Origin: Myxococcota bacterium | GTDB lineage: Bacteria; Myxococcota_A; Bradymonadia; UBA7976; UBA1532 | Direction: 5' to 3' | DNA length: 64,000 nt | Assembly: GCA_036337435.1 (NCBI GenBank) | Contig: JAYZEG010000010.1 | Coordinates: 25,171 to 89,170 of the forward strand | Part shown: positions 2,373 through 49,854 of the stretch, in pieces | Numbering within the stretch: the first letter of the stretch is position 1 | Layout: each line of letters starts with the position of its first letter | Position numbers and translations under genes: made by a program | The notes under the pieces: model-generated | Told to the model about the DNA's origin: nothing | Databases searched by the model: none | What the model saw: the letters and a program-made list of their open reading frames with translations, nothing else

Positions 2373-3314
2373 TTGAAAGTGGTGGATGTGATCAGACGAT
2401 TTAAGTTCGGCCTGGTAGGGATCTTGGCTCTTTGCCATCTCCTCTCTTGTACTCGAGCCGAAGCAAAGGGCCAAGGGGCTGAAGGCCTGGTGCGTGATCT
2501 GATCACCTTGATCAAGACGGCGGAACAACAACGTTGGCAAATAGACCATTATGAGTATGAAGATCTGATGAGCGACGCACTGATCTTGGTCTGCGTAGCG
2601 GATAAAGAGACCCGTGACGCGGCACTGGCTCACTTAGCCAGGTCTCAAGAAACGCTGGGGGGCGAACCCAGCAAGCATTGGTCCGAGGCCAACAAAGATG
2701 AAGCAAAGATCAAAGAGTTGATGACCATAAGCCGAAGCAAAACCTTATTGATCAAATCACTCGATGTTGCGCAAACACGATGCCCATTCCGTCTCACACA
2801 AAAACCAATCTATACCGAGCGGCATCGGGTCACCGACCGTTTTTTCATGGCATTCCAGGGTGGTGGTTTGATGAATATCCGATTTTCAGATGAAAATCGG
2901 GCTGGTGGTGGCGGCTCTGGCCGAATCGATTTTGGATACGGTTTCGGACCGTTTTGGTCATTGCGAACGGGCTTAGAAATGGGCGGCGCAGGGCTCTTTG
3001 ATGAAAAAATAGATGCCGGCGATATCGACCTCATGTTTTATTTTGCGACGCCCATTACCCTCAGACATAGACAACGTCTTTGGCATCAGGATATCGAAAT
3101 TGCGCCTGTCGCTCTGGGTCTGCCTTGGCAAGACGAAATGAGATTTGGCGGCAGAATCGGCGGACTCTTTGGCCTCACTTACTCACGTCTGGGTATGATT
3201 CAACCCTGGGGGGGACTCAAAGTCGCTGCGGAATACATTCCAGACCAAAAGGGACGAGATGAACTTTTAATCATGCGGCTGGGTCTACGTTTTGGGTTTG
3301 ATTTACATCTCTAG
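2373..3314 (+). CDS. hypothetical secreted protein, possibly a beta-strand-rich OM protein
   Basis: TTG start. N-terminal signal FKFGLVGILALCHLLSC, a Gly-rich middle region and a C-terminus ending ..GLRFGFDLHL. No recognisable catalytic motif. Confidence 0.5.
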   Translation: MKVVDVIRRFKFGLVGILALCHLLSCTRAEAKGQGAEGLVRDLITLIKTAEQQRWQIDHYEYEDLMSDALILVCVADKETRDAALAHLARSQETLGGEPSKHWSEANKDEAKIKELMTISRSKTLLIKSLDVAQTRCPFRLTQKPIYTERHRVTDRFFMAFQGGGLMNIRFSDENRAGGGGSGRIDFGYGFGPFWSLRTGLEMGGAGLFDEKIDAGDIDLMFYFATPITLRHRQRLWHQDIEIAPVALGLPWQDEMRFGGRIGGLFGLTYSRLGMIQPWGGLKVAAEYIPDQKGRDELLIMRLGLRFGFDLHL

Positions 3315-7364: not shown

Positions 7365-8291
7365 TCAATCGTCGGATTGAAACTCGGGGTCGAGAAAAAT
7401 AATCTGATCGGCACGCGTCGAAAGTCGTAACATCGTGCGATATCCGGATGTTTTTCTTTCGAACAAATCTTTCACATCGAGCACACCGGCCTTCCTCAAT
7501 TGGCTGCGCAGTTTGCCCCGCTCAAAACCAAGCCGTTCGATCCCCGAATTGGGATTACCGCCGAGTTTGAGCCACTGTTGATGACTCTCCGGTGCTGTGA
7601 GCCAGCCGCCCTCCGTGTAACTCTCATCTCTGCGGACCAATGCATAGGCAGCCAGTACGCGGACGCACTCCCCTGTGACTCTGACAGAGCTTTCGTCGCT
7701 TTCGAAACAGGCCCAAAGCTCCGAAACTGAAATTCGCAGGCTGCATTCATCGATGATCAAATGAAGTTGAGCCACCAACGTCGGTGCACCGAGAACCGGA
7801 AAGAAGAGACGATATAGCGAGGTCCCCGAACTGACAAGATCACCATCTTTCAACTCGTAGGATGCGTCAGCTCCATGTTCCCATCCAAACCGATAAAAGC
7901 GGTCATCGACACACTCGTAGAGGTCATCTAACGCATCTCCGCTGACGAACTCATTGTTTTCGACATTCATCGCGAATGCTTGTGGCGGAGTTGTATCGGT
8001 TAATTCAGCAACGATGCCGTCATCGATGGTAATGCGGGCGACACGGCGACTTAGGCTATTGATGATACGCCAGCCGTTTTGATCAACCGAACCGGACCCT
8101 CTCGTTTCATCGACACGATTGAGCGGTCGCCAACCCCAATTTTGACCTAACCAACGAATCTCAAACCAGAACTGAGGCACACTGGATGAAAAAAACCGGG
8201 CATGACAGCTCCAATGCCGCCCAACAAGACAAACCTCTGATATGGGAATGATTCGCGTAGTAGAACCATCTGTTAATTTCAACGCCCCCAT
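7365..8291 (-). CDS. FHA-domain protein (hypothetical)
   Basis: N-terminal segment ..TRIIPISEVCLVGRHWSCHARFF...FWFEIRW.. resembles an FHA fold. The rest is uncharacterised. Confidence 0.5.
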   Translation of the reverse strand: MGALKLTDGSTTRIIPISEVCLVGRHWSCHARFFSSSVPQFWFEIRWLGQNWGWRPLNRVDETRGSGSVDQNGWRIINSLSRRVARITIDDGIVAELTDTTPPQAFAMNVENNEFVSGDALDDLYECVDDRFYRFGWEHGADASYELKDGDLVSSGTSLYRLFFPVLGAPTLVAQLHLIIDECSLRISVSELWACFESDESSVRVTGECVRVLAAYALVRRDESYTEGGWLTAPESHQQWLKLGGNPNSGIERLGFERGKLRSQLRKAGVLDVKDLFERKTSGYRTMLRLSTRADQIIFLDPEFQSDD

Positions 8292-8487
8292 TTAACGCCC
8301 CACACAGTCCACACGTCTCCACTAATCAAACCACGCCCACCGAAAGCACGTGGTGCGCAAATATGACTGGGATGCAGTTATGATATGAATTGAGCTGCTG
8401 ATTTTGCAAGAGGCGTTAGACAAAAACCCCCTCTACACAACCAGCAGACCAATGGGTTTAGAGCCCTTCGAAAGACTCCAGAGCCCC

Positions 8488-8829
8488 CTAGAAGGCGGTC
8501 CAAAGAAATCGTTTAAAATCAACGAGGCCTCGGTCTGAGAAAACAATACCCTCCACTTCGAGGAGATTTTTCTGCAATTGAGCGCGTACAGATTGACCCC
8601 GACCACTGATGTAACCACGACTGTTTATAATTCGATGCCACGGGACGTCGGCGTCTTTGTCCGTAATCGACGCAAGAGCCCAGCCAACATGTCTCGCCAC
8701 TCTCGGACTTCCAAGTTGTGTTGCGATTTGGCCGTAGGTAGACACCCGACCAGCGGGGACACGACGCACCAAATCATAGACACGTTGGTGGAAGCCGGGT
8801 CCGACAATCTTAGGTTCTAGTTGCGTCAC
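8488..8829 (-). CDS. alkyltransferase-like protein (ATL; MGMT DNA-binding fold without the Cys acceptor)
   Basis: ..TYGQIATQLGSPRVARHVGWALA...VPWHRIINSRGYISG.. matches the Ogt/Ada C-terminal domain with PCHR replaced by PWHR, as in YbaZ/Atl1. At 113 aa it lacks an N-terminal domain. Confidence 0.8.
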   Translation of the reverse strand: MTQLEPKIVGPGFHQRVYDLVRRVPAGRVSTYGQIATQLGSPRVARHVGWALASITDKDADVPWHRIINSRGYISGRGQSVRAQLQKNLLEVEGIVFSDRGLVDFKRFLWTAF

Positions 8830-8877
8830 AGATACTCCAAGTAAAGATGTCCAAGGCAGCCGGGCGACCCAGGGGGG

Positions 8878-10335
8878 TCAATCGATTGTGCAAAAGGCTG
8901 GAAAACTGACGTTTAATCCAGTCTGGAACGGACTCGGCGAATTCAGCCTGTGGGCAAATAAAAATTCGAGAAACCAAGGGGTGAACAGCGGCTTCCACTC
9001 ATGCCCTGTATCGTGATTACACGTCGCAACAAGGTGGCCATTGGATTTAAGCTTAGGAATGGCATCACTGGCGAAGGTAGAAAAGTTTTGACCTGCCGAC
9101 TCATCGCAATCACCACCCCAACCGTAAATGATCGGCATGGTGTTGGCGTTTGAATTAGGCATATCAAAAATAATTCCGCCCGAGTTGATTGCAGCTGCAG
9201 CAACAGTCTCTGCAAATTGACTCACAAGAAACGTTGTGAACATGCCTCCGCCGCTGTCTCCCGCAAGATACAGTCGTTCAGGATCAGCGCCGAGTGTTTG
9301 TTGAGCACATGTCAGTAAGTCATCCACCAAAGCGACGTCTGGATTATCGCCAGGCCGCCCTTGATCCCATTCGATTGCCAAACGCCGGGAGTAGGGTGAG
9401 ATCAAGATAAAATCAAAGGGGTCTACCAATCGATTCATGGCCGTGTCTTCTTCAATATCATCGACTTGATCCGCATTGATTCCATGAAACAGCAAGACTG
9501 TTTTGTACCGACCTTGCTGCGAGTGAGACTGCGGAAGTCGAATTCTCACCGTCCGTTCAATGCCGCAACTCGTAATGATGTTTTCCCCACTCACGAGGTT
9601 TGGACAGGCGTTCGGTTCGATCCGTTCACATGTTGTTTCCGCACCAGAGGAGCTGCAGCCATATGGTGAATCGGGCCTACGTTCAGACCACGGAACACCT
9701 CCAAAAGTGCTCTGCTGGAGCGCTAAGTCTAGAGTTTCAACCTCCCCTTGAACAAAGCCACAGATCGAGGCATTGCCCGTTACAACACCAATGAATTCTA
9801 GATCGAAGACCACATCGCTGCCCGTAGGGCTAAAATCACCGGGCATGACCGCATTTTCAAATGCCGCGACAAACTGCCCATTTTCATCCACATTCACATC
9901 ACTGGCGACAGCGAACGGCTCGCTGACTTGATCGTCCTTGTAGGCTCTCAGCCGAAGCTCGCTGAATCGCAAGCCTTGGTCATCAGCAAACACATCAATT
10001 TCGAGCTGGGTGTCGAGGAAAAAGTCGATTTCGGCCAGATAAATTCGCAGAAAATAAGCATCTGACTGCAAGGGGTCTTCACTGCCTTCAGGAAGCAAAC
10101 TGCGGACATCGACATCGGGCATGTCTTCATTGGTTTCAGCGGGCATTGACATGGATACAGACGTCGGTTCCATCACCGGATTTCCGTCTTGTTCTTCACA
10201 GCTTCGATAATCGTGATAGGTGCCACCGAGTTGGTATGGATCTGTCGTCGATTTATGGGAATCACCACTGCAGCCAAATACAAGCACGACAAGGCTGGTG
10301 AGCCCAACTCTAAACCCAACAATTTGATTTTTCAT
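8878..10335 (-). CDS. secreted lipoprotein, LpqC/PHB-depolymerase-family alpha/beta-hydrolase (esterase)
   Basis: Start set at MKNQIVGFRVGLTSLVVLVFGCSG (lipobox). The C-terminal half carries ..LLFHGINAD...RLYLAGDSGGGMFT.. (GxSxG) and a ..H.W tail, typical of COG3509 esterases. Confidence 0.7.
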   Translation of the reverse strand: MKNQIVGFRVGLTSLVVLVFGCSGDSHKSTTDPYQLGGTYHDYRSCEEQDGNPVMEPTSVSMSMPAETNEDMPDVDVRSLLPEGSEDPLQSDAYFLRIYLAEIDFFLDTQLEIDVFADDQGLRFSELRLRAYKDDQVSEPFAVASDVNVDENGQFVAAFENAVMPGDFSPTGSDVVFDLEFIGVVTGNASICGFVQGEVETLDLALQQSTFGGVPWSERRPDSPYGCSSSGAETTCERIEPNACPNLVSGENIITSCGIERTVRIRLPQSHSQQGRYKTVLLFHGINADQVDDIEEDTAMNRLVDPFDFILISPYSRRLAIEWDQGRPGDNPDVALVDDLLTCAQQTLGADPERLYLAGDSGGGMFTTFLVSQFAETVAAAAINSGGIIFDMPNSNANTMPIIYGWGGDCDESAGQNFSTFASDAIPKLKSNGHLVATCNHDTGHEWKPLFTPWFLEFLFAHRLNSPSPFQTGLNVSFPAFCTID

Positions 10336-10494
10336 CTCGCTCCTCAACTGAGATTTGGTGGCGCAATTCATTGGGTCAATGCCCATGACGAACGCCTGAG
10401 GTTGTCTGCAACTCAGCTTAGTCAAGTGAATTGCTGCTCTTCAAGCCCATCCCAAAGGTGACCGATACAGATGAGTGATGAGTAACCCGTGACG

Positions 10495-11283
10495 TCAGGA
10501 CCGAAACGCCTTCTTCTTCCGCGCCATCACTTGTTCAAGCTTGGCCCAGTTCTCTTTCACATCCGGTTCTGTCTGTACCACGACCGCATCCGATGACGAG
10601 TCAAAAAGTGGCTCTCGTTTGGCGTGTAATAGATCCGATTCCGTCATCAGTGCGCCCTCAAAATTCACGTCTCTGAGGTCTGCACCCTTAAAATTAGCCC
10701 CCCTCAAATCGGCCGCTTCAAAACACGCCATCCGGAGAGAGCTGCCTCGCATATCCAGGTGCTCGAGATCCATGTTACGAAGACCGGTATCTTTCAGAAC
10801 TGACGACAATTCATCGGGTCCGTCAGGCCATGGTGAAATCGAATCAACCAGAATGTTGGACGCCCGGAGTCGCTGCGCCATGATGCGGGACAGGTTGCGA
10901 TAAATTTTGAGAGACAAACTGTGGGGCGCGTTTTCAAGAAGCGTTTCAGAAAACGCAAATAAGTTGACCTCAGTGGCTGCCACGACACTGGCTGAGCGAG
11001 GCGCATTATCGATCAATGACATCTCGCCAACAGTCGCACCTGGTTCGAGTCGAGCAAGCTCGTCTCCACGGCCATTACTGTCGGATGTGACAACGAGTTG
11101 GCCGGCCATCAAAACAAACAGAGATTGAGCCGGTGTCCCTGCTGAAATCAAAACACTGCCGGCCTCCAAACGACGCGGCTTTGCTTGCTTCAGAAGGTAT
11201 GAAATCTCGGAGGGGCTCAGGTCGCTAAAAAGCCTGACTTTTTCAATGAGCCTGCTCAACTTGTCCTTGATCGCCAAGGCCAT
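10495..11283 (-). CDS. cyclic-nucleotide-binding domain protein fused to pentapeptide repeats
   Basis: cNMP-binding fold (..RLEAGSVLISAGTPAQSLFVLMAGQLVV...GATVGEMSLIDNAPRSASVVAA..) followed by A(D/N)LxxxxFxx pentapeptide repeats (ADLRGANFKGADLRDVNFEGA). Start moved to the internal MALAIKDKL. Confidence 0.7.
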   Translation of the reverse strand: MALAIKDKLSRLIEKVRLFSDLSPSEISYLLKQAKPRRLEAGSVLISAGTPAQSLFVLMAGQLVVTSDSNGRGDELARLEPGATVGEMSLIDNAPRSASVVAATEVNLFAFSETLLENAPHSLSLKIYRNLSRIMAQRLRASNILVDSISPWPDGPDELSSVLKDTGLRNMDLEHLDMRGSSLRMACFEAADLRGANFKGADLRDVNFEGALMTESDLLHAKREPLFDSSSDAVVVQTEPDVKENWAKLEQVMARKKKAFRS

Positions 11284-11781
11284 CCCCCAATCCAGAGTCA
11301 ACACGTCGCAATGCACAGGCGTCTTACTTAAGCGATCTAAGCACTTAAGACAAATCAAAACAAACCCACAGCAAAACCGCGAATCATGTTTGCCTGATAC
11401 AGCCTGTAGTGGCCTATATGGCCGACAAAGAAGGACCTTGGTTCGGTGAGAACGAATCCACACCGAGTTGGATGACCAAGTGGACGTCTGATATACGGCA
11501 TTCGAACAGCAAGTGACCGGCTTACAGTATGCCTGAGTGATTGGGATAAAAACGGAGAGCGATGCAACCCAAAGTCTGCTGGTGACCTCTTTAAGCGTGT
11601 ACTCACAGGGCGAGGCTGACTGCTTTCAAACAGCACCGGCCGCGCGGGTCACGCAAGACTTCGGGCCAGAATCGAACGGGTTAAAGTGGACCGAATGCAG
11701 CCAGGCGCTAGCTGTGTGGGCGAGGACAGTGTATTTGAACAGAGTGGCGCTGAATGCATCAGCAGGGGGTTTAAATCAACG

Positions 11782-12813
11782 ATGAAAAAACGAACCGGGA
11801 TTCTTCTCACCCAACTCGGCACGCCGAAAGCGGCGACGGTGGGTGCTGTACGTCCTTACCTTCGGCAATTCTTAAACGACCCCCGAGTGATCGACATTCC
11901 AGCGTTGGTCCGACTGGTTTTAGTGAATCTCGTCATCGTCCCATTTCGCGCGCCGAAATCGACCAAGATTTACAAGGAACTCTGGGAGTATGGTAACGGG
12001 CGATCCCCCTTGTTGACCATCACCAAAGCACTCACCGAAGAATTAAATTCACGGCTCAACGACGATGATATTTTTGTCCATATGGCAATGCGGTATCAGG
12101 AGCCGTCCATGGACTCAGTCCTCGAGTCGATGCAACGCGAAAACTATGACAAGATCGTCATCCTGCCCATGTTTCCCCATTATGCATCGTCTAGTTCTGG
12201 TTCAGCCATTCAAAGGGCGATGGACATCATCGCGAAGTGGTGGGTCATTCCGGAACTCGAAGTTGTCAGCCAATTTTACGATGCCGAGTTCTACATCGAT
12301 ACACTCGTCGAGCAAGCGCAGAAGCATGATCTAGACTCCTATGACCACATTATCATGAGCTACCACGGGCTTCCCGACCGCCACGTGGACAAAGTGTATT
12401 TGGACAAAGCAGACCTATGCGCACAACATAATTGCGAAACGGTGCTCGATGATACAAACAAGTTTTGTTACAAAGCCACCGCCTTTGAGACGTCGCGTCT
12501 GATCGCTGAAAAGATGGGACTTGATGACGATGATTATACGGTGGCTTTCCAATCGAGATTGGATAAGAAGTGGTTGACACCCTTCAGTGATGAGGTGGTC
12601 GAAGAGTTGGCCAAAGCGGGTAAAAAGCGGCTGCTGGTTTTCTCGCCTGCTTTTGTGGCTGACTGCCTCGAAACAATCATCGAAATCGGGTCGGAGTATC
12701 AGGAAATCTTCGAAGAGCACGGCGGTGAGAAAGTTCAGCTTGTCGCCAGTTGCAACACGGAAGAAACGTGGGTCAGCGGTCTCAGCGAGTTCATTCGCGA
12801 ACGACGCGCATAG
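11782..12813 (+). CDS. hemH: ferrochelatase
   Basis: GILLTQLGTPK N-terminal motif, MSYHGLPDRH and the acidic ..CLETIIEIGSEYQE.. segment. Start set at MKKRTG. Confidence 0.9.
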   Translation: MKKRTGILLTQLGTPKAATVGAVRPYLRQFLNDPRVIDIPALVRLVLVNLVIVPFRAPKSTKIYKELWEYGNGRSPLLTITKALTEELNSRLNDDDIFVHMAMRYQEPSMDSVLESMQRENYDKIVILPMFPHYASSSSGSAIQRAMDIIAKWWVIPELEVVSQFYDAEFYIDTLVEQAQKHDLDSYDHIIMSYHGLPDRHVDKVYLDKADLCAQHNCETVLDDTNKFCYKATAFETSRLIAEKMGLDDDDYTVAFQSRLDKKWLTPFSDEVVEELAKAGKKRLLVFSPAFVADCLETIIEIGSEYQEIFEEHGGEKVQLVASCNTEETWVSGLSEFIRERRA

Positions 12814-41649: not shown

Positions 41650-43116
41650 TTAGTTGGAATCATCTACAGATAAAGGCCCCAAATAGTCACCCTGTGCATC
41701 ATACAAGAAAATCGGGAGCCCAAAGGTTTTCAACCCATCCAATATTTTCGCCTTGTCACCGGCAACAATGATTTGAAACTGCTCGGCAACTGCGTGTTTC
41801 TGAGCAGCGTCGCGCGCCATACTCAGGGAGACTTGAGCCACCTTCTTCATGCGACTATGATACCAGTCGAGTCCTCGTTTCTTAGCGACCAGACCACCTA
41901 ATTCGCCAGCCACATTTCCCATCCGTTCGAACCGTCCGGGAATCCCCTTGATCATACTGCTCTTCGCGCTCTCGACTTCATCCGCGGTGATTGGCTTATC
42001 GCCAGAAACCAGTCTGATTTCTTTGAGAATTTCATCAATGCTTGCTTTCGTTGTCTCACCTTTCACCTTGGCATAGATCAAATAGGCACCATCATCCAAA
42101 AGCCTCATGAACGCCCCTCGAGCACCGTAGGTATAGCCTTTGTCTTCTCTCAGGTTCATGTTGACCCGCGCCGTGAATGCACCGGCAAAAGCTTTGTTGA
42201 AGACCTCGCTCTGAAAATAGTCGGGTGCTTTGGCACCCTCTGCCTGTCTAATGGCGATGACCATAGACTGCGATGAGCCAGGAAAATCGACGAGCCGAAT
42301 CCCCACATTTGAAGGCTTCGTGGATGGCTCAATGGGACTCTCAACTTGGCGACCGGTCCATTGTCCGAGATTGTTCTCTAAGGCGGCTTCCAGTGCTGTC
42401 CTCTCGCAATCACCGACGACCACTACGGTTGCACCGTTGGGTTTAATGAGTTTTTCATATTGGAGTTGGACGTCCTTCCGAGTGACCTGTGCAAGTGTTT
42501 TGCGGACGCCATTGGGTGAATAGGCACCGTAGCCTGACCCGTTCATCACCCGCCTCGCAACAACGAAGGCAACCGATGATGGATTAGATTCACTCGTCAG
42601 GGCCCGAGCATCTCGTTGCGCCTTGACACGATTGAAGTCGGTCTCAGCGAACCCAGGCTTGGTTAAAATCTTAGCCAAGAGCGATAAAGACGCGTCAAGT
42701 TTATCGGCCAGCAAAGACATCGAAAGGGTTGCCGAGTCGATATCCACCCTGACACTGTAGTCTGTGGCGAGTTGAGAAAATGCGTCTGATAACTCGAGAG
42801 CACTCAGGCCATCCGCGCCCTCATCCAGCAGGTCGACCATTAAGGCCGTTGTGCCAGCGCGGCCACCAGGGTCTGTCGCCGATCCCTTCGGAAAAACCAA
42901 CTGTATTGCGAGGAGCGGTGCTTGGGTTTGCCTGACGAACCAAACATTGAGTCCATTGCTGAGAGTCCATGTCTCGATCTCGGGCTGACTCCAAGGTGAG
43001 GCTGCCGCCGGCCCGGGCAGTTTAGAGCGGTCAGGCCCGCCTTGTTTTTGGACCTGACCACCGCCACAGCCTATGGCGAACATGAGGACCGTAAAAAAAG
43101 ATATCGCCCACTTCAT
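41650..43116 (-). CDS. M16-family peptidase, non-catalytic (M16B-type) subunit, lipoprotein
   Basis: Insulinase-fold sequence lacking HxxEH. Start MKWAISFFTVLMFAIGCGG overlaps the upstream gene's stop in ATGA. Confidence 0.75.
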   Translation of the reverse strand: MKWAISFFTVLMFAIGCGGGQVQKQGGPDRSKLPGPAAASPWSQPEIETWTLSNGLNVWFVRQTQAPLLAIQLVFPKGSATDPGGRAGTTALMVDLLDEGADGLSALELSDAFSQLATDYSVRVDIDSATLSMSLLADKLDASLSLLAKILTKPGFAETDFNRVKAQRDARALTSESNPSSVAFVVARRVMNGSGYGAYSPNGVRKTLAQVTRKDVQLQYEKLIKPNGATVVVVGDCERTALEAALENNLGQWTGRQVESPIEPSTKPSNVGIRLVDFPGSSQSMVIAIRQAEGAKAPDYFQSEVFNKAFAGAFTARVNMNLREDKGYTYGARGAFMRLLDDGAYLIYAKVKGETTKASIDEILKEIRLVSGDKPITADEVESAKSSMIKGIPGRFERMGNVAGELGGLVAKKRGLDWYHSRMKKVAQVSLSMARDAAQKHAVAEQFQIIVAGDKAKILDGLKTFGLPIFLYDAQGDYLGPLSVDDSN

Positions 43117-44522
43117 TTGGCCCCTCCTGTTGGCGCAGTCTTGGCTGGTTCCTCGACGGGCAACACATCGATTCGTAAATGCGGCTTTTGCAACCACAGG
43201 TTGGCCGCCTCAAATACCGTATCTGCGGTGAGTTCAGTGTACCGAGCCAAATCGGTTCCAAGATAATCGGCCCGCCCCTTGATATGGTGGTATGTACTTA
43301 AAAGCTGGGCTCGTGACAGCACGCTCTCGACCCGTCCGTAAAAGGACTTCTTGTACGCATTGATGGCCTTAGCCATTTCCTCAACGCTCGGTTTGGTTGC
43401 GAGGGCGTCACCAAGTGCTTTTTTTAATGCCCCTTTGAGATCCTCAATTGACGTCCCAGGCGCAGCGACTGCCTGCACGACAAAGAAACTGCCCAAGGCC
43501 ATGGAGACCTGATACGCATTCACTCGCGTCGCGATCTTTTGGTCAAAAACCAGTGGCTTGTACAAGCGGCTTGTCTTGCCAGCACTCAAAACCGAGGCCA
43601 AAATATCCATCTCTGAATCGCCCTTTGCGTACAAAGCCGGCGTATGCCAAGCCATGACGATCATGGGCAGTTTGACTTCATCCCTGTCTACGATGTGTTT
43701 GTTGGTCGCCAATGATGCGGGAGAATGTTTTGGCCACGGTGTACGCTTGCCCCTCGGCAAGTGACCGAAATATCGGCGAACCAAGGCTTTGGCCTGCTCC
43801 ATTTCGAAATCACCCGCGATGGTCACGATGGCGTTGGTTGCTGAATAATGCTGCTTGAAAAACGATTTTACGTCGTCCAAGCTCGCTGCCGTCAGGTCCG
43901 CATGAGAGCCAATGGTCGGATGCCCATAGGGGTGTTTTTTTGGGTACAGCTGCTCATAGAGGTGTAACCAGACTCGGCCGTAGGGACGGTCTTCATAGGA
44001 TTGTCGACGCTCATTTTTGACGACATCTCTCTGGTTATCCAATTTCTTCATAGTCAACGCAGGCAGCAAATTTTCCATCCGATCGGATTCTAACCAGAGG
44101 GCGAGTTCCAGATACTCTTTCGGGACTCTTTCATAGTAATTGGTTCGGTCTACACTGGTCGTTCCATTAATGGCTGCGCCGATGGGTTGTAAGGGCTTGA
44201 AGTATTCATCGTTGTAATTCTGAGAACCCTGGAACATCAGATGTTCAAATAAATGCGCAAACCCACTTCGGCCGACTTTCTCATGAGCAGACCCCACCAT
44301 GTACCGCACCTCAACAGCGACGACAGGAAGCCGAGTATCTCGGCTGAGAAGTACGGTCAAACCATTATCTAGAACCCATGTTTCAACGTCCACCGTGGGT
44401 GGATTGGCCGTCTTGGATTGGGTGTTTGAAGGCACCTGCTCTGCCGTAGGTGTCCCGACATCGGCCTGACTTTGGAATGGCACAACGAAAGCAAGAGCGA
44501 TAAAAACATGCAGCCGACTCAA
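43113..44522 (-). CDS. M16-family zinc peptidase (pitrilysin-like), catalytic subunit
   Basis: Signal peptide. Inverted zincin motif HLFEHLMFQGS (HxxEH) and downstream Glu region ..NGTTSVDRTNYYE.. Confidence 0.8.
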   Translation of the reverse strand: MSRLHVFIALAFVVPFQSQADVGTPTAEQVPSNTQSKTANPPTVDVETWVLDNGLTVLLSRDTRLPVVAVEVRYMVGSAHEKVGRSGFAHLFEHLMFQGSQNYNDEYFKPLQPIGAAINGTTSVDRTNYYERVPKEYLELALWLESDRMENLLPALTMKKLDNQRDVVKNERRQSYEDRPYGRVWLHLYEQLYPKKHPYGHPTIGSHADLTAASLDDVKSFFKQHYSATNAIVTIAGDFEMEQAKALVRRYFGHLPRGKRTPWPKHSPASLATNKHIVDRDEVKLPMIVMAWHTPALYAKGDSEMDILASVLSAGKTSRLYKPLVFDQKIATRVNAYQVSMALGSFFVVQAVAAPGTSIEDLKGALKKALGDALATKPSVEEMAKAINAYKKSFYGRVESVLSRAQLLSTYHHIKGRADYLGTDLARYTELTADTVFEAANLWLQKPHLRIDVLPVEEPAKTAPTGGAK

Positions 44523-44748: not shown

Positions 44749-45822
44749 TCAGTCACCACGAATCCAAGGATCGCTCCAATCCATTCGGTCAACGATGCTG
44801 ATGTCACTCAGTGCGAGAAGAAAAGCCTCGAGATCATCCAGTTCGGAGTCGGTCAAATGAAGCGGGCGTATGCGGGGATCTTTATACGGGTTCGTCCGGC
44901 CGTCTCCCACGAAGGGTCCGGACGTAATCAGTCGACCCCCCGCATTGTAATGCTCGAGAACGTCTCGCAGGGTGGCACCGGTTCCGTCGTGATAGTAGGG
45001 CTTTGTGAGCGCAAGATGCCGAAGTGTCGGTACCCGAAAGCGGCCGATATCTGAAGGCTGCCCCGTCAGCTCATAAAGTCCTTGTCGAGAGCTCGGGTAA
45101 GTCCCGGTCTCCAGAGAATATAGACCGGTATTGAACCAGCCATGCCGACCATCCATGGGCTGGTCAAAATCGGCACCACCGTGGCAGCTGGAACAAAGGG
45201 TCCGACGTGAATAAAAGAGTGCCTCTCCACGCTTTACGACCTCATCGATGGCTGTTTCATCGCCGGCTAGAAAACGATCGTAGGGGGCATCGTAAGTCGT
45301 GAGAGACGAGACAAACGCCGCGATTGATAGGGCCAACAAGTCGAGGTCCAAGGCTGTGGCACCAGCGGCCACCAGTAACTGTTGGTATCGATGATCACCA
45401 TTGAGCTCATCGAGCATGTCGTCGATTGATTCGGCGGCCCCCATTTCGATGGGCTCGGTCCCCAACAAGGGCACCAAAAGTTGCTGAGCCAGCGAAACAG
45501 GACTTGGGTCGACCCAACTGAGCGTTCTACGTTCGCTCACGTTGAGTAAGGTCAATGTGTTTCGCGGGTGTATGGCACCCGTTGTCCCGACAGCACGAAC
45601 AAAACCATCCGTGAATCCTTTGGCCTGTTCGTGACAGATGCCGCAAGAGCGGTCATTGTTGAAGGACAAGCGACGCTCGTAGAACAGATGGCGTCCGAGC
45701 TCCACGAGGGGCGAAGATGTCTGGTCTCTGGCCTGTTCAGCTTGGGTGTGACATCCGGAGGACAATGAATAGAGCAGCAGAGCGCCCAAGCCAATTGCTG
45801 AGTTTATCTTCAGCATGGTCAT
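44749..45822 (-). CDS. di-haem cytochrome c peroxidase family protein (CcpA/MauG/MbnH-like), lipoprotein
   Basis: Two CxxCH motifs (CGICH, CSSCH), ..LGRHLFYERRLS.., and the conserved ..PTLRHLALTKPYYHDG.. segment. Lipobox LSSGC. Confidence 0.8.
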   Translation of the reverse strand: MTMLKINSAIGLGALLLYSLSSGCHTQAEQARDQTSSPLVELGRHLFYERRLSFNNDRSCGICHEQAKGFTDGFVRAVGTTGAIHPRNTLTLLNVSERRTLSWVDPSPVSLAQQLLVPLLGTEPIEMGAAESIDDMLDELNGDHRYQQLLVAAGATALDLDLLALSIAAFVSSLTTYDAPYDRFLAGDETAIDEVVKRGEALFYSRRTLCSSCHGGADFDQPMDGRHGWFNTGLYSLETGTYPSSRQGLYELTGQPSDIGRFRVPTLRHLALTKPYYHDGTGATLRDVLEHYNAGGRLITSGPFVGDGRTNPYKDPRIRPLHLTDSELDDLEAFLLALSDISIVDRMDWSDPWIRGD

Positions 45823-45841: not shown

Positions 45842-46441
45842 TTAGTCTAATTTCATAAATGAGAGGTGTACGGGCTCATTGGCGTCGCCGGTAATTCGGA
45901 CAGTGAATGAACCCCAGGCATGATAGAGATGGCGGTGGTCTATGAGCCCTGAGTCGTCGCAAGCACCATTCCAACTCACGCTTTGAACCGGCTCGATATC
46001 GCAATTTTCATCCAGAATCACGAGCGACTCTTGATACCTCAACGAAGTGGCGATCGTGATGGACCACTCGGGAATCTCTAGGGTGAAATAGCCAACGCCA
46101 GCGTCGGGCAAACGGACAGATAACGCTGTATCCTGGCGTGGAGTAACCACGACTTGGCCCGCAGAATTCGCATCTGCGACGGCGATAATCTCCGTCGGAA
46201 CAGTGCCTAAAAGAGAGCAGGCAGCCTGGGCCAGCGCATCGTCGGGGCCAACTGGCAGTTGAGGTCGTCCCAGAGGCTGCCCCTCCTCCACTGGCTCGGA
46301 CACACCAACCTCTGTTGCAGACCCACCAGAGATACAATCATCTCGCTGCCCCCCCGTATTTCGAGAGGACGAGTCGTGGCCGCATGCAATCAGACTGGTG
46401 CAGAGAATCGGCAGAGCAAAAAACGTACGCAGTGTTGTCAT
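45842..46441 (-). CDS. hypothetical lipoprotein, His-rich C-terminus, partner of di-haem peroxidase
   Basis: Lipobox LIACG. ..GLIDHRHLYHAWGS.. near the C-terminus. 19-nt gap to the downstream CCP gene on the same strand. Confidence 0.55.
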   Translation of the reverse strand: MTTLRTFFALPILCTSLIACGHDSSSRNTGGQRDDCISGGSATEVGVSEPVEEGQPLGRPQLPVGPDDALAQAACSLLGTVPTEIIAVADANSAGQVVVTPRQDTALSVRLPDAGVGYFTLEIPEWSITIATSLRYQESLVILDENCDIEPVQSVSWNGACDDSGLIDHRHLYHAWGSFTVRITGDANEPVHLSFMKLD

Positions 46442-46683
46442 GCGGGGACCACTTTCAATTGAATTGACTTATTTCGGAGCGAAGGGGGTCTTTGGATACC
46501 TTGCACACGTTTGTCCCCGTCAGTTACACTTAACATAGATGCATGTCGCTCTGACAAGGTTGAAAGCAACTTTATCAGGCTAGACATTATCTTCTTGTAG
46601 CCGAGATCAGTTGGCGAGGGTGTTTGAGGTGCCGTAATTTGGCTCACCGGGACAGAAGCTGCGACCGAAGCGTGAGGAAAAAA

Positions 46684-47538
46684 ATGACCGTGCAACATTC
46701 AGGTCGACGTCGTCATCCGGGCTCTTTTCTGAACCGAGTCATTGGGTGTGTGGCTGTGATTGCGTCCTGCTTCGTATTCGGCTGTGGCTCGCCAGATGCC
46801 AGTACAGAAGAACGCGTAGCAGTCGAAATCGCATTCTCTGTGAACGCGGGCGGTGCACCATTTCAATGCGGTCAAGCCGTAGCTGACCTGGGCACGGAAC
46901 GGACAACAGTCGCGATGACAGACATGCGTTTCTATGTCCATGACATCGCTTTCATTGACGAAGATGGTCGCGCCCAACCAATCAGACTGAACGACGACGG
47001 CATTTGGCAGAAAGACGGCGTTGCACTACTCGACTTCGAAGATGGGTGTGCGAACGGAACAACGCAAATGAATAGCCGAATCAGGGGCACGACCACAGAC
47101 GGCCCGTATACCGGCCTACGCTTTCGTATCGGTATCCCAAACCAGCTCAACTCACCACAAACGGTTCTGGAGAACCGGGGCAGTCCACTCAATCAGGCGT
47201 CTTTATTCTGGTCGTGGCGTTCCGGCTACAAGTTCATGCGAATCGATGCAGACAGCAATGCATTTCGGTTTCACCTCGGGTCTGTTGGATGTGATGACGA
47301 CTTCAATTGCCAATTTGAGAATATTCCAACGATCTTGCTCAGTGACTTTACTTGGCAAACTCAAACCGTGACCTTGGATCTCGACGACCTACTCGAGGGA
47401 ACAAACCTGAGTGAAAACACGACGGGTACGGCGCCGGGCTGCATGGGCGACCCAGACGATCCAGAATGCAGCTCGATTTTCGCACGTCTGGGACTCAGCT
47501 CAACCGAGGCTACGGCCTTTTCTGTACGGGATAATTAG
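46684..47538 (+). CDS. MbnP-like candidate (secreted partner of MauG/MbnH-type peroxidase)
   Basis: Lipobox CFVFGCGS. About 285 aa with four Cys pairs and conserved Trp (..SLFWSWRSGYKF..). Sits 11 nt upstream of a di-haem peroxidase. The MbnP call rests on architecture and context, not on a verified motif. Confidence 0.5.
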   Translation: MTVQHSGRRRHPGSFLNRVIGCVAVIASCFVFGCGSPDASTEERVAVEIAFSVNAGGAPFQCGQAVADLGTERTTVAMTDMRFYVHDIAFIDEDGRAQPIRLNDDGIWQKDGVALLDFEDGCANGTTQMNSRIRGTTTDGPYTGLRFRIGIPNQLNSPQTVLENRGSPLNQASLFWSWRSGYKFMRIDADSNAFRFHLGSVGCDDDFNCQFENIPTILLSDFTWQTQTVTLDLDDLLEGTNLSENTTGTAPGCMGDPDDPECSSIFARLGLSSTEATAFSVRDN

Positions 47539-47549
47539 GTCATTTAAGA

Positions 47550-48740
47550 ATGGGAAATCAGACCGAACGGAACACAAATGCGACAAGCGGGTTTATCCTG
47601 CGCTGGTTGCTCATGGTCTGCTCATTTCCAGCTATGGTGAGTTGTGGCGATAGTGGTATCGATGCGTCCGAGACCCCGTTTACGCTTCAAATCCCGGAGC
47701 ATTTCCCAACCGCTCCAGTCCCTGAAGACAACCTGCCCACTGCAGCGAAATTAGAGCTGGGACGCTTCCTTTTCTACGATCCCCTTCTCTCGTTTAACGA
47801 GTCGTATTCATGCGCGACATGCCATCAGCAAGCACTTGCCTTTACAGACGGCCGACCGGTTGCAGTGGGCGCATCGGACCAAAGCCACAGTGTCGGATCG
47901 ATGTCGCTGGCCAATGTCGGCTATGCTGCGACCCTTGGATGGGGCAATCCAACTTTGACATCCTTAGAGGCTCAAGCTCTGGTCCCCATGTTTAACGAAG
48001 ACCCCGTCGAATTGGGACTCAGCGCACTCACCGAGCAAGACCTCTTGGATAGACTACAGGCTGAAGACCGCTATCAACGGTTATTTCCGGCTGCTTTTCC
48101 GGCAGATGACGAACCGTTTACGGTGGGCAATATCGCCAAGGCCATCGCCACCTTCGAGCGCACTATAATCAGTGCCAATTCCCCCTACGACCGCTACATG
48201 AAAGGGGATCGAAGTGCCCTGGATGCGTCAGCGATTCGAGGCATGAACCTCTTTTTTTCAGAACGCTTGGAATGCTTTCATTGTCACGGAGGCTTTGCAA
48301 TGAGTGATTCCGTGAAAAGCCCCGACTTCCCGTTTACCGAACGGCCGTTTCACAATAATGGCATGTACAATCTCGGCGGGTCTGGCCAATACCCCAGCAA
48401 TCAGGGTGTCTATGAGCTCACTCGTGAACGGCAAGACTTAGGCCGATTCAAAGCACCAACGTTACGTAATATCGCTGTGACAGCCCCTTACTTACACGAT
48501 GGTTCAATCTCGACTCTCGACGAATTGATTGATTTGTATGCCGCCGGGGGCCGCCAAATCAGCGATGGACCCCATGCCGGAGACGGAACAGCGCATCCAA
48601 ATAAGAGTGTTTTTATCGTCGGCTTTATTCTCAATGATAACGAGAAGCAGGACTTGATGGCGTTCTTGAATTCGCTGACGGATGAGGAATTCCTGAAAAA
48701 CCCTGAGTTGAGCGACCCATACAAGGACACGACAGATTGA
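47550..48740 (+). CDS. di-haem cytochrome c peroxidase family protein (MauG/MbnH-like), lipoprotein
   Basis: CATCH and CFHCH haem motifs; ..LGRFLFYDPLLS.. and ..PTLRNIAVTAPYLHDGSISTL.. Confidence 0.8.
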   Translation: MGNQTERNTNATSGFILRWLLMVCSFPAMVSCGDSGIDASETPFTLQIPEHFPTAPVPEDNLPTAAKLELGRFLFYDPLLSFNESYSCATCHQQALAFTDGRPVAVGASDQSHSVGSMSLANVGYAATLGWGNPTLTSLEAQALVPMFNEDPVELGLSALTEQDLLDRLQAEDRYQRLFPAAFPADDEPFTVGNIAKAIATFERTIISANSPYDRYMKGDRSALDASAIRGMNLFFSERLECFHCHGGFAMSDSVKSPDFPFTERPFHNNGMYNLGGSGQYPSNQGVYELTRERQDLGRFKAPTLRNIAVTAPYLHDGSISTLDELIDLYAAGGRQISDGPHAGDGTAHPNKSVFIVGFILNDNEKQDLMAFLNSLTDEEFLKNPELSDPYKDTTD

Positions 48741-48979
48741 AATATCCCGTCCTTCTGGTCGTGCTTGTCGTCAGCACACTGTCCTGTCGAAATCAAATCG
48801 GTCACCCATGCAAAGAAAAAGGCGACTGTGCACTGGGGCTTTATTGCGACCTGGAACGGGAAATCTGCGATGATCGAGGCAAACTGCTCAAAAAAAAGGC
48901 CGAGAAAATCTACGTGTACCCAATTCCTCCAAAAACGGCCCCCGCACACCCCAAGGGGATGCCGATTCAGGTGCGATAA
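48737..48979 (+). CDS. small Cys-rich lipoprotein, translationally coupled to the peroxidase
   Basis: ATGA overlap with the upstream stop. MKYPVLLVVLVVSTLSC signal with lipobox. Four Cys (CKEKGDCALGLYCDLEREIC). Confidence 0.45.
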   Translation: MKYPVLLVVLVVSTLSCRNQIGHPCKEKGDCALGLYCDLEREICDDRGKLLKKKAEKIYVYPIPPKTAPAHPKGMPIQVR

Positions 48980-49068: not shown

Positions 49069-49854
49069 ATGTCAAAATTATTGCTGATGGTCTTTGTCTT
49101 TACGGCGGTTGGAGCGCAGGCCCATAAACCGAGCTTCTCGAACGGTGAATTTAAATCCTTTGACACCGCGTGGCCTATCCAGAACATGGCGACCTCAATC
49201 GTTCTCTACCACGACGTGACCTGTGAATCAGACCAACTTTGGCTCGAATTCAGCTCCGTTGGTGAAGAGGAACTATTCGTTCAGTTAGGTGTTCCCGTGA
49301 TAGAGCGGCTGACGGACTATCGCCCGTCTATCGCCATCCTTGCCGCCGGTCTCCCCCCCATAAACGATACCGTCCCTTTTGAAATCCCCGATGGACTCGG
49401 TGGCATCGTCTACCATTCGAGCCAAATCGAAGCACCGACTGACTTCTACGAGCCGTTTTCACAAACTGAATCGTGGATTCTCTTGGAGACGACAAAAATC
49501 ATAGAGCAAGCCGGAACGGGTTATGTTGTCGCCTGGGTTCCAGAAAACACCACGGGAAAACTCTGGGTCGCCATCGGAACGGTTGAAGATTTCAGTGACG
49601 TTGAGCCGACCGACTTTTCATCTTGGCTCGAGCAAACCCAAGAATACCATGAGACGGGGCCCTACTCCGATACGCAGCAGTCAGAAGTGTCCTGCCAGCC
49701 TGTGGATGAGATGAACCCTGTATCGGCCGCGTCAGCGGGCTGCGCGACAGCGCACGGCCACCCGCAGCAAAGTTCATTCGTCATGTTGGCCGTGCTTGGA
49801 CTGATCATGCTCCGCGGTCGACAAAAGCACCTTCATCGTCGGCAGCGAATTTGA
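49069..49854 (+). CDS. secreted protein with predicted N-terminal His after signal cleavage and MYXO-CTERM-like tail
   Basis: Signal ..AVGAQA|HKPSF leaves His as the first mature residue. C-terminus ..SAGCATAHGHPQQSSFVMLAVLGLIMLRGRQKHLHRRQRI has a GC motif, hydrophobic helix and basic cluster. Confidence 0.6.
   Translation: MSKLLLMVFVFTAVGAQAHKPSFSNGEFKSFDTAWPIQNMATSIVLYHDVTCESDQLWLEFSSVGEEELFVQLGVPVIERLTDYRPSIAILAAGLPPINDTVPFEIPDGLGGIVYHSSQIEAPTDFYEPFSQTESWILLETTKIIEQAGTGYVVAWVPENTTGKLWVAIGTVEDFSDVEPTDFSSWLEQTQEYHETGPYSDTQQSEVSCQPVDEMNPVSAASAGCATAHGHPQQSSFVMLAVLGLIMLRGRQKHLHRRQRI

Follow-up and report, generated by a model that had tools for sequence, protein, structure and literature searches.

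The gene at positions 46684–47538 (plus strand) of the window, by which we mean the whole 64,000-nucleotide stretch of Myxococcota DNA analysed here, is, judged by its sequence and predicted fold, an ordinary member of the MbnP family that automatic annotation has already named correctly. Very probably, its product is a lipid-anchored periplasmic copper-binding protein, co-transcribed with its maturase MbnH, in which a tryptophan would be converted to kynurenine and a copper ion would be bound, as in the characterized methanotroph protein. Divergent from this gene lies a second pair, made up of a 199-residue lipoprotein of an unnamed family (hereafter partner199) and an MbnH paralogue (MbnH2), and the lipoprotein is a tentative candidate for a new kind of dihaem-enzyme substrate.

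An MbnP-family protein, probably a lipoprotein, with six mature cysteines

The open reading frame begins with an ATG at 46684, ends with its stop codon at 47538 and encodes 284 residues; with a Shine-Dalgarno sequence (AGGA) 10 nt 5' of the start, it bears out the gene proposed in an earlier note made from the DNA letters, which had suggested an MbnP homologue and had named a profile-HMM search and an alignment with the MbnP of Methylosinus trichosporium as ways to check it. The protein scores well above the cut-offs of both curated profile models, with 241.9 bits (E 6.7e-72) against TIGR04052 (MbnP_like_WxW), a model of the equivalog type with a cut-off of 140 bits, and 125.9 bits against Pfam PF20243 (cut-off 27). 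By sequence search, the M. trichosporium protein (7l6g_A) is the sole relative of solved structure (E 1.8e-28, residues 47–276), and an AlphaFold model built from 60 homologues (pLDDT 89.5, pTM 0.83) leads to the same protein by fold: Foldseek matched all six chains of 7L6G (TM 0.74, E ~1e-20) and returned no other PDB entry with E < 0.1, the next match having an E value of 0.15, in keeping with the unique fold ascribed to MbnP. The homology is thus supported by both profile models, by the 7L6G sequence and by the predicted fold. NCBI nr already lists the identical protein (P0001) under the title [quoted passage not shown], so the novelty of the assignment is low; it adds one more MbnP/MbnH pair, shows that the name given by the NCBI pipeline is right and, taken by itself, matters little.

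The cysteine pattern needs revision. Eight cysteines arranged as four disulfide pairs had been proposed, and the sequence contains nine, at residues 22, 29, 34, 62, 122, 203, 209, 253 and 262; Cys22, Cys29 and Cys34 fall within the signal peptide and lipobox, and the six that are left in the mature part allow three disulfides at most, not four. In the alignment of 60 homologues, C62, C203, C209, C253 and C262 are invariant and C122 is present in 58, and 7L6G carries the same six cysteine columns. The predicted signal peptide extends to the lipobox Cys34 (V-F-G-C; 46684–46785), which occupies the lipobox cysteine column (L-x-[GA]-C) of most homologues, and residues 14–31 form a helix in the model. 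On these grounds a lipid anchor, as the earlier note had it, is plausible.

The predicted copper site and kynurenine precursor

The W-x-W-R-S-G-Y-K-F segment to which attention had been drawn is present as WSWRSGYKF at residues 176–184 (47209–47235), and one tryptophan of its WxW motif (W176-S-W178; 47209–47217) is the predicted kynurenine precursor. W176 and W178 are found in all 60 homologues, and their counterparts in the 7L6G chain are W149 and W151; of the wider tryptophan cluster reported as conserved, only these two are invariant, W108 being Trp in 55/60 and W224 variable. In the published description, MbnP binds copper through a His, a Met, solvent and Kyn174, a kynurenine that MbnH makes out of Trp174 in the conserved WxW motif (PMC11951088). 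In the protein described here, His197 (47272–47274) is the sole invariant His (60/60) and aligns with H182 of 7l6g, and Met254 (47443–47445, within G-C-M) is the only conserved Met (58/60) and aligns with M244; M147, M180 and H202 of 7L6G are not conserved. This pattern of conservation points to H197 and M254 as the likely copper ligands. Alignment with the M. trichosporium protein finds the WxW, His and Met positions kept, and the MbnP family retains its predicted copper-site residues far from the methanotrophs.

Which of the two motif tryptophans would be modified depends on the numbering of Trp174, which we derived by way of the M. sporium orthologue (locus L001), the best match to the 7L6G sequence in a genome scan (79%). 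This orthologue has 325 residues, of which the first 26 form the signal peptide; the other 299, the mature protein, equal the 7L6G chain in length and begin with the same 7-residue lead. With a 25-residue signal peptide in the OB3b protein, Trp174 would be the first motif tryptophan, corresponding to W176 here; if Trp174 were the second, a 23-residue signal peptide would be required. W176 is therefore the favoured candidate for the modified residue, although this numbering needs a one-residue shift from M. sporium.

The MbnH enzyme and the proposed maturation of MbnP

Eleven nucleotides downstream of MbnP, where an MbnH-like peroxidase had been noted, a gene that starts at 47550 (47550–48740, plus strand) encodes a dihaem enzyme of 396 residues, itself a probable lipoprotein, with CxxCH motifs at residues 88 and 242. 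It scores 459.3 bits against TIGR04039 (cut-off 362.85), and its closest solved relative is BthA (6e1c, E 5e-101). Tyr330 aligns with Tyr294 of MauG (3l4m chain position 264 + 30) and also, in the canonical peroxidase 3o5c, with the ligand Met ("NTM"); His/Tyr haem ligation is the property that sets MauG-type enzymes apart from canonical peroxidases (PMC11892367). The adjacency of MbnP and MbnH is kept in six related loci (L017, L018, L021, L022, L023 and L024).

By homology with the methanotroph pair, both MbnP and MbnH would be exported, and MbnH, a dihaem enzyme of the MauG type in which His and Tyr would ligate the electron-transfer haem, would be brought to the bis-Fe(IV) state by H2O2. 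In this state it would oxidize one WxW tryptophan of MbnP to kynurenine, with W176 favoured and W178 possible, and the modified residue would then join His197, Met254 and a solvent molecule in binding one copper ion. It is from the likeness to the characterized system that we infer both the tryptophan-to-kynurenine conversion and the binding of copper in this MbnP.

The likeness to the MbnP/MbnH pair of M. trichosporium OB3b (7L6G; Manesis et al., 2021, via PMC11951088) extends from the family (by HMM) and the fold (TM 0.74) to the WxW motif, the His, the Met and the six Cys, and in both cases the MbnH gene follows immediately downstream; the sequences are only 27–34% identical. In contrast to the methanotroph orthologues, which have a plain signal peptide (cleaved between ALA and A), the protein described here has a lipoprotein signal, and it lacks methanotroph insertions such as "ESLVDGKPVF" and "IPPAAVIKPDGSKS". 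The gene neighbourhoods differ as well. Whereas a TonB-dependent receptor gene lies directly upstream of MbnP in the methanotroph locus L001, a Pfam scan of all large open reading frames between 29.8 and 64 kb of the window found no MbnA, MbnB, MbnC or MbnT TonB-dependent transporter, and with no methanobactin genes or TonB-dependent transporter in the surrounding 30 kb, the MbnP/MbnH pair stands alone. Unlike in M. trichosporium, it also has, divergent from it, a further pair of lipoprotein and dihaem genes.

A closer counterpart is the "metallo-mystery pair" defined by TIGR04052 and TIGR04039 (GenProp0940), a stand-alone pair of an MbnP-like and an MbnH-like protein that is not tied to methanobactin producers and is found in Myxococcota; TIGR04039 is named after MXAN_0977 of Myxococcus xanthus, and the pair type was originally defined on this myxobacterial gene. 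Nothing essential differs between such pairs and the one described here, the local additions downstream being an 80-residue Cys-rich lipoprotein, whose place a cytochrome c takes in relatives, and the 261-residue N-terminal-His protein.

A second lipoprotein and dihaem enzyme on the opposite strand

The divergent neighbour of MbnP is the gene for partner199 (45842–46441, minus strand), and the gene for MbnH2 (44749–45822, minus strand; 357 residues) follows 19 nt downstream of it. MbnH2 has CxxCH motifs at residues 60 and 210, is 42% identical to MbnH, carries Tyr291 in the ligand column and matches BthA (6e1c) with an E value of 4e-71; its score of 328.4 bits against TIGR04039 lies under the cut-off of 362.85, which makes it an MbnH-like protein rather than a certified member of the family.

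Searches with partner199 returned no Pfam or NCBIfam family and no PDB sequence match. An exhaustive profile search of 1.84e9 representative proteins retrieved 109 relatives (62 with E <= 1e-10), which share a layout in which an acidic linker of low complexity joins the lipobox to a ~140-residue domain. Within the family the invariant residues are C74, W125, C160 and W175, with H173 conserved in at least 90% of the members, H173 and W175 being part of the motif F/Y-H-x-W-G. The domain is modelled as a beta-sandwich (pLDDT ~97), and the nearest fold is a collagen-binding/PPC domain (TM ~0.6, 10% identity). Two possible affiliations were considered and rejected: hhalign detects no profile similarity to MbnP, with which partner199 has only the lipobox in common, and for the MopE/CorA type, neither 2VOV nor 4BZ4 is found by sequence or by Foldseek. 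Membership in DUF4453 was likewise rejected, with sub-threshold scores of 13–14 bits against a cut-off of 26. These weak matches occur in 5 of 40 members (P0224, P0226, P0236 and two others) and are in a consistent register (profile positions ~22–94), and the partner199 family may be remotely related to DUF4453, another uncharacterized domain.

Comparison of gene order over 14 partner199 loci, 13 of which include downstream sequence, shows a dihaem gene directly after partner199 in 12 of the 13, with L024 as the exception, and in six loci (the window, L017, L018, L021, L023 and L024) partner199 lies beside MbnP-MbnH. We tentatively put forward the idea, which we regard as possible rather than probable, that partner199 is a new kind of tryptophan-bearing substrate of a MauG/MbnH-type dihaem enzyme. 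If this were true, the two genes would constitute a second "mystery pair", structurally unrelated to the first, in which MbnH2 would oxidize W125 or W175 and the modified tryptophan would form a copper or redox site together with His173; the locus as a whole would serve marine Myxococcota as a copper module of two pairs, with the partner199 pair under CsoR in relatives.

Known dihaem systems provide several points of comparison with the locus. In MauG and pre-methylamine dehydrogenase, a dihaem His/Tyr enzyme oxidizes the tryptophans of a separate partner at long range; the product of MauG is the tryptophan tryptophylquinone of an enzyme, as opposed to the kynurenine of a metal site in the case of MbnH, and the match to the TTQ_mauG model here is 162 against a cut-off of 444. 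MopE/CorA, encoded beside dihaem peroxidases (MCA2590 and CorB), is a copper protein with a kynurenine in its metal site, but it has a different fold and no similarity in sequence, and MbnP, like partner199, has no match to 2VOV or 4BZ4 by sequence or Foldseek. BthA of Burkholderia thailandensis (6E1C), a MauG-type enzyme that forms bis-Fe(IV), is the solved structure nearest to both dihaem enzymes of the window and has been described as having a "cryptic activity" (PMC11892367); in contrast to BthA, each of the two enzymes here has an obvious candidate substrate as a neighbour. Partner199 is a candidate, open to direct test, for a new protein with a modified Trp, and it suggests what the substrate of an "orphan" branch of MauG-type enzymes might be.

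The proximity of the two pairs raises the question of whether MbnP might instead be matured by, or shared with, MbnH2, such that the four divergent genes would make up one cross-reacting module. Both pairs are adjacent in the six loci named above, as such a module would have it, and in L024 partner199 has no downstream dihaem gene of its own and lies beside MbnP-MbnH only. We nevertheless regard cross-reaction as unlikely: MbnP is always directly followed by a gene of the MbnH1 type, in 12 of 13 loci partner199 has a dihaem gene of its own directly after it, six of these (L025–L030) show no MbnP in the available sequence, and the two dihaem enzymes are only 42% identical.

Putative CsoR-type regulation in related loci

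In three related loci (L018, L019 and L020), the divergent gene upstream of the partner199 family gene encodes a CsoR-family protein. The encoded proteins have the spacing Cys34/His59/Cys63, which, by comparison with Mtb CsoR, we take to be that of the Cu(I)-sensing CsoR type. A palindrome, ATACCC-N5-GGGTAT, is located between the CsoR and partner199 genes in the same three loci (CsoR-family genes and CsoR-type operators: L018 11617–12012, L019 1114–1511, L020 1333–1724), and is found again in L024 (2826–2840). The same palindrome precedes MbnP in L017 (7011–7025), just after a promoter of the TTGACA-17 type, and in L018 (6760–6774), such that the operators are placed upstream of either a partner199 gene or MbnP. 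It matches the published CsoR consensus, ATATACCCCTNAGGGGTATAT or TAC-N9-GTA (PMC3902906). In L021, genes for a CusA-like (ACR_tran) and a CusB-like (HMBD, BSH_CusB) efflux protein adjoin the two-pair cluster (7431–12792). The presence of CsoR-type operators in related Myxococcota loci points to induction by excess copper, not to scavenging, and together with the CusAB genes of L021 it suggests, by extension from these relatives, that the role of the MbnP/MbnH pair is most probably the buffering of copper in the envelope, or its hand-off to efflux, under copper stress. Such induction is the opposite of the starvation logic assumed for methanobactin operons, and the link to CsoR in the relatives bears on the question of what MbnP is for.

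The palindrome also affects one gene model. In L017 (7001–7045), the start given in the database for the MbnP homologue P0010 (MNNIPPWGMKLQTQ...) makes the CsoR operator itself part of the translation. The true start is probably the ATG at ~7045 (MTMKRK...), so the 5' end of this model extends too far.

The window itself contains no CsoR gene by tblastn and no CsoR operator even when 2 mismatches are allowed, and gene and operator are likewise absent from L023, the closest relative, and from L021. In the divergent intergenic region of the window (46442–46683), alignment with L023 reveals two conserved non-coding blocks (alignment columns ~92–129 and 149–190) that are nearly identical in the two sequences, the flanking proteins being only ~63–66% identical; a small inverted repeat, GTTAAGTGTAAC, lies within the blocks. 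These blocks are candidate promoter/operator elements that would take the place of the CsoR site. A scan for sigma-70 promoters and terminators was uninformative, 46442–46683 showing no match to the sigma-70 consensus.

Could the MbnP fold be real and the copper not? On such a reading, the protein of this lineage would not be a copper protein in the first place; its Trp-derived site would bind another metal or act as a redox cofactor, or the protein would serve the dihaem enzyme solely as a scaffold or electron partner. The physiological role of MbnP/MbnH is unsettled even in methanotrophs (PMC9601215), the window is devoid of a copper regulator or operator, as just described, and two dihaem enzymes plus the cytochrome c of the relatives would suit a peroxide or electron-transfer module. 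We consider this quite improbable, however, given that the His, the Met and the WxW motif are conserved relative to 7L6G, that CsoR genes with the C-H-C motif and CsoR operators accompany the orthologous genes in relatives, and that CusAB is adjacent to the cluster in L021. It is hardly credible, finally, that the MbnP frame is a decayed or unexpressed copy without function, as its origin in a MAG and the failed sigma-70 match might be taken to suggest, for the frame is intact with all family-invariant residues kept and a good Shine-Dalgarno sequence, its operon partners are intact and the non-coding blocks are conserved with L023. Copper binding by an MbnP that is matured by MbnH remains our preferred reading.

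Downstream genes and conserved neighbours

Two further genes follow MbnH on the plus strand. The first (48737–48979) encodes a small Cys-rich lipoprotein of 80 residues, begins with TTG and overlaps the MbnH stop by 4 nt. We consider it a real gene because L023 keeps it (2447–2689, minus strand) with ~78% amino acid identity and many synonymous changes. In L017, L018, L021 and L024 the same slot is occupied by a small cytochrome c with a CxxCH motif; the sequence of the 80-residue protein contains no CxxCH.

The second gene (49069–49854) encodes a secreted protein of 261 residues with a MYXO-CTERM-like tail, which has no Pfam, NCBIfam or PDB match and at least 88 homologue clusters. H19, H194, W58, W136 and W166 are invariant in the family, and the predicted signal cleavage (between AQA and H) falls just before His19, such that the mature protein would have an N-terminal His; we speculate that a histidine-brace metal site is possible. 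The gene follows MbnP-MbnH in L017 and L023 as well, but an obligate partnership with the pair can be dismissed, as homologues are found elsewhere in unrelated contexts. One such homologue, in locus L033, lies near a gene with a Cu-binding_MopE domain.

On the far side of the divergent region, the MbnH paralogue is followed on the same strand by two genes for M16 (insulinase-like) peptidases and one for a methyltransferase, at 41650–44522 of the window (minus strand), 586–3176 of L017 and 6875–9777 of L023. This arrangement may reflect the conserved gene order of close relatives rather than a functional link.
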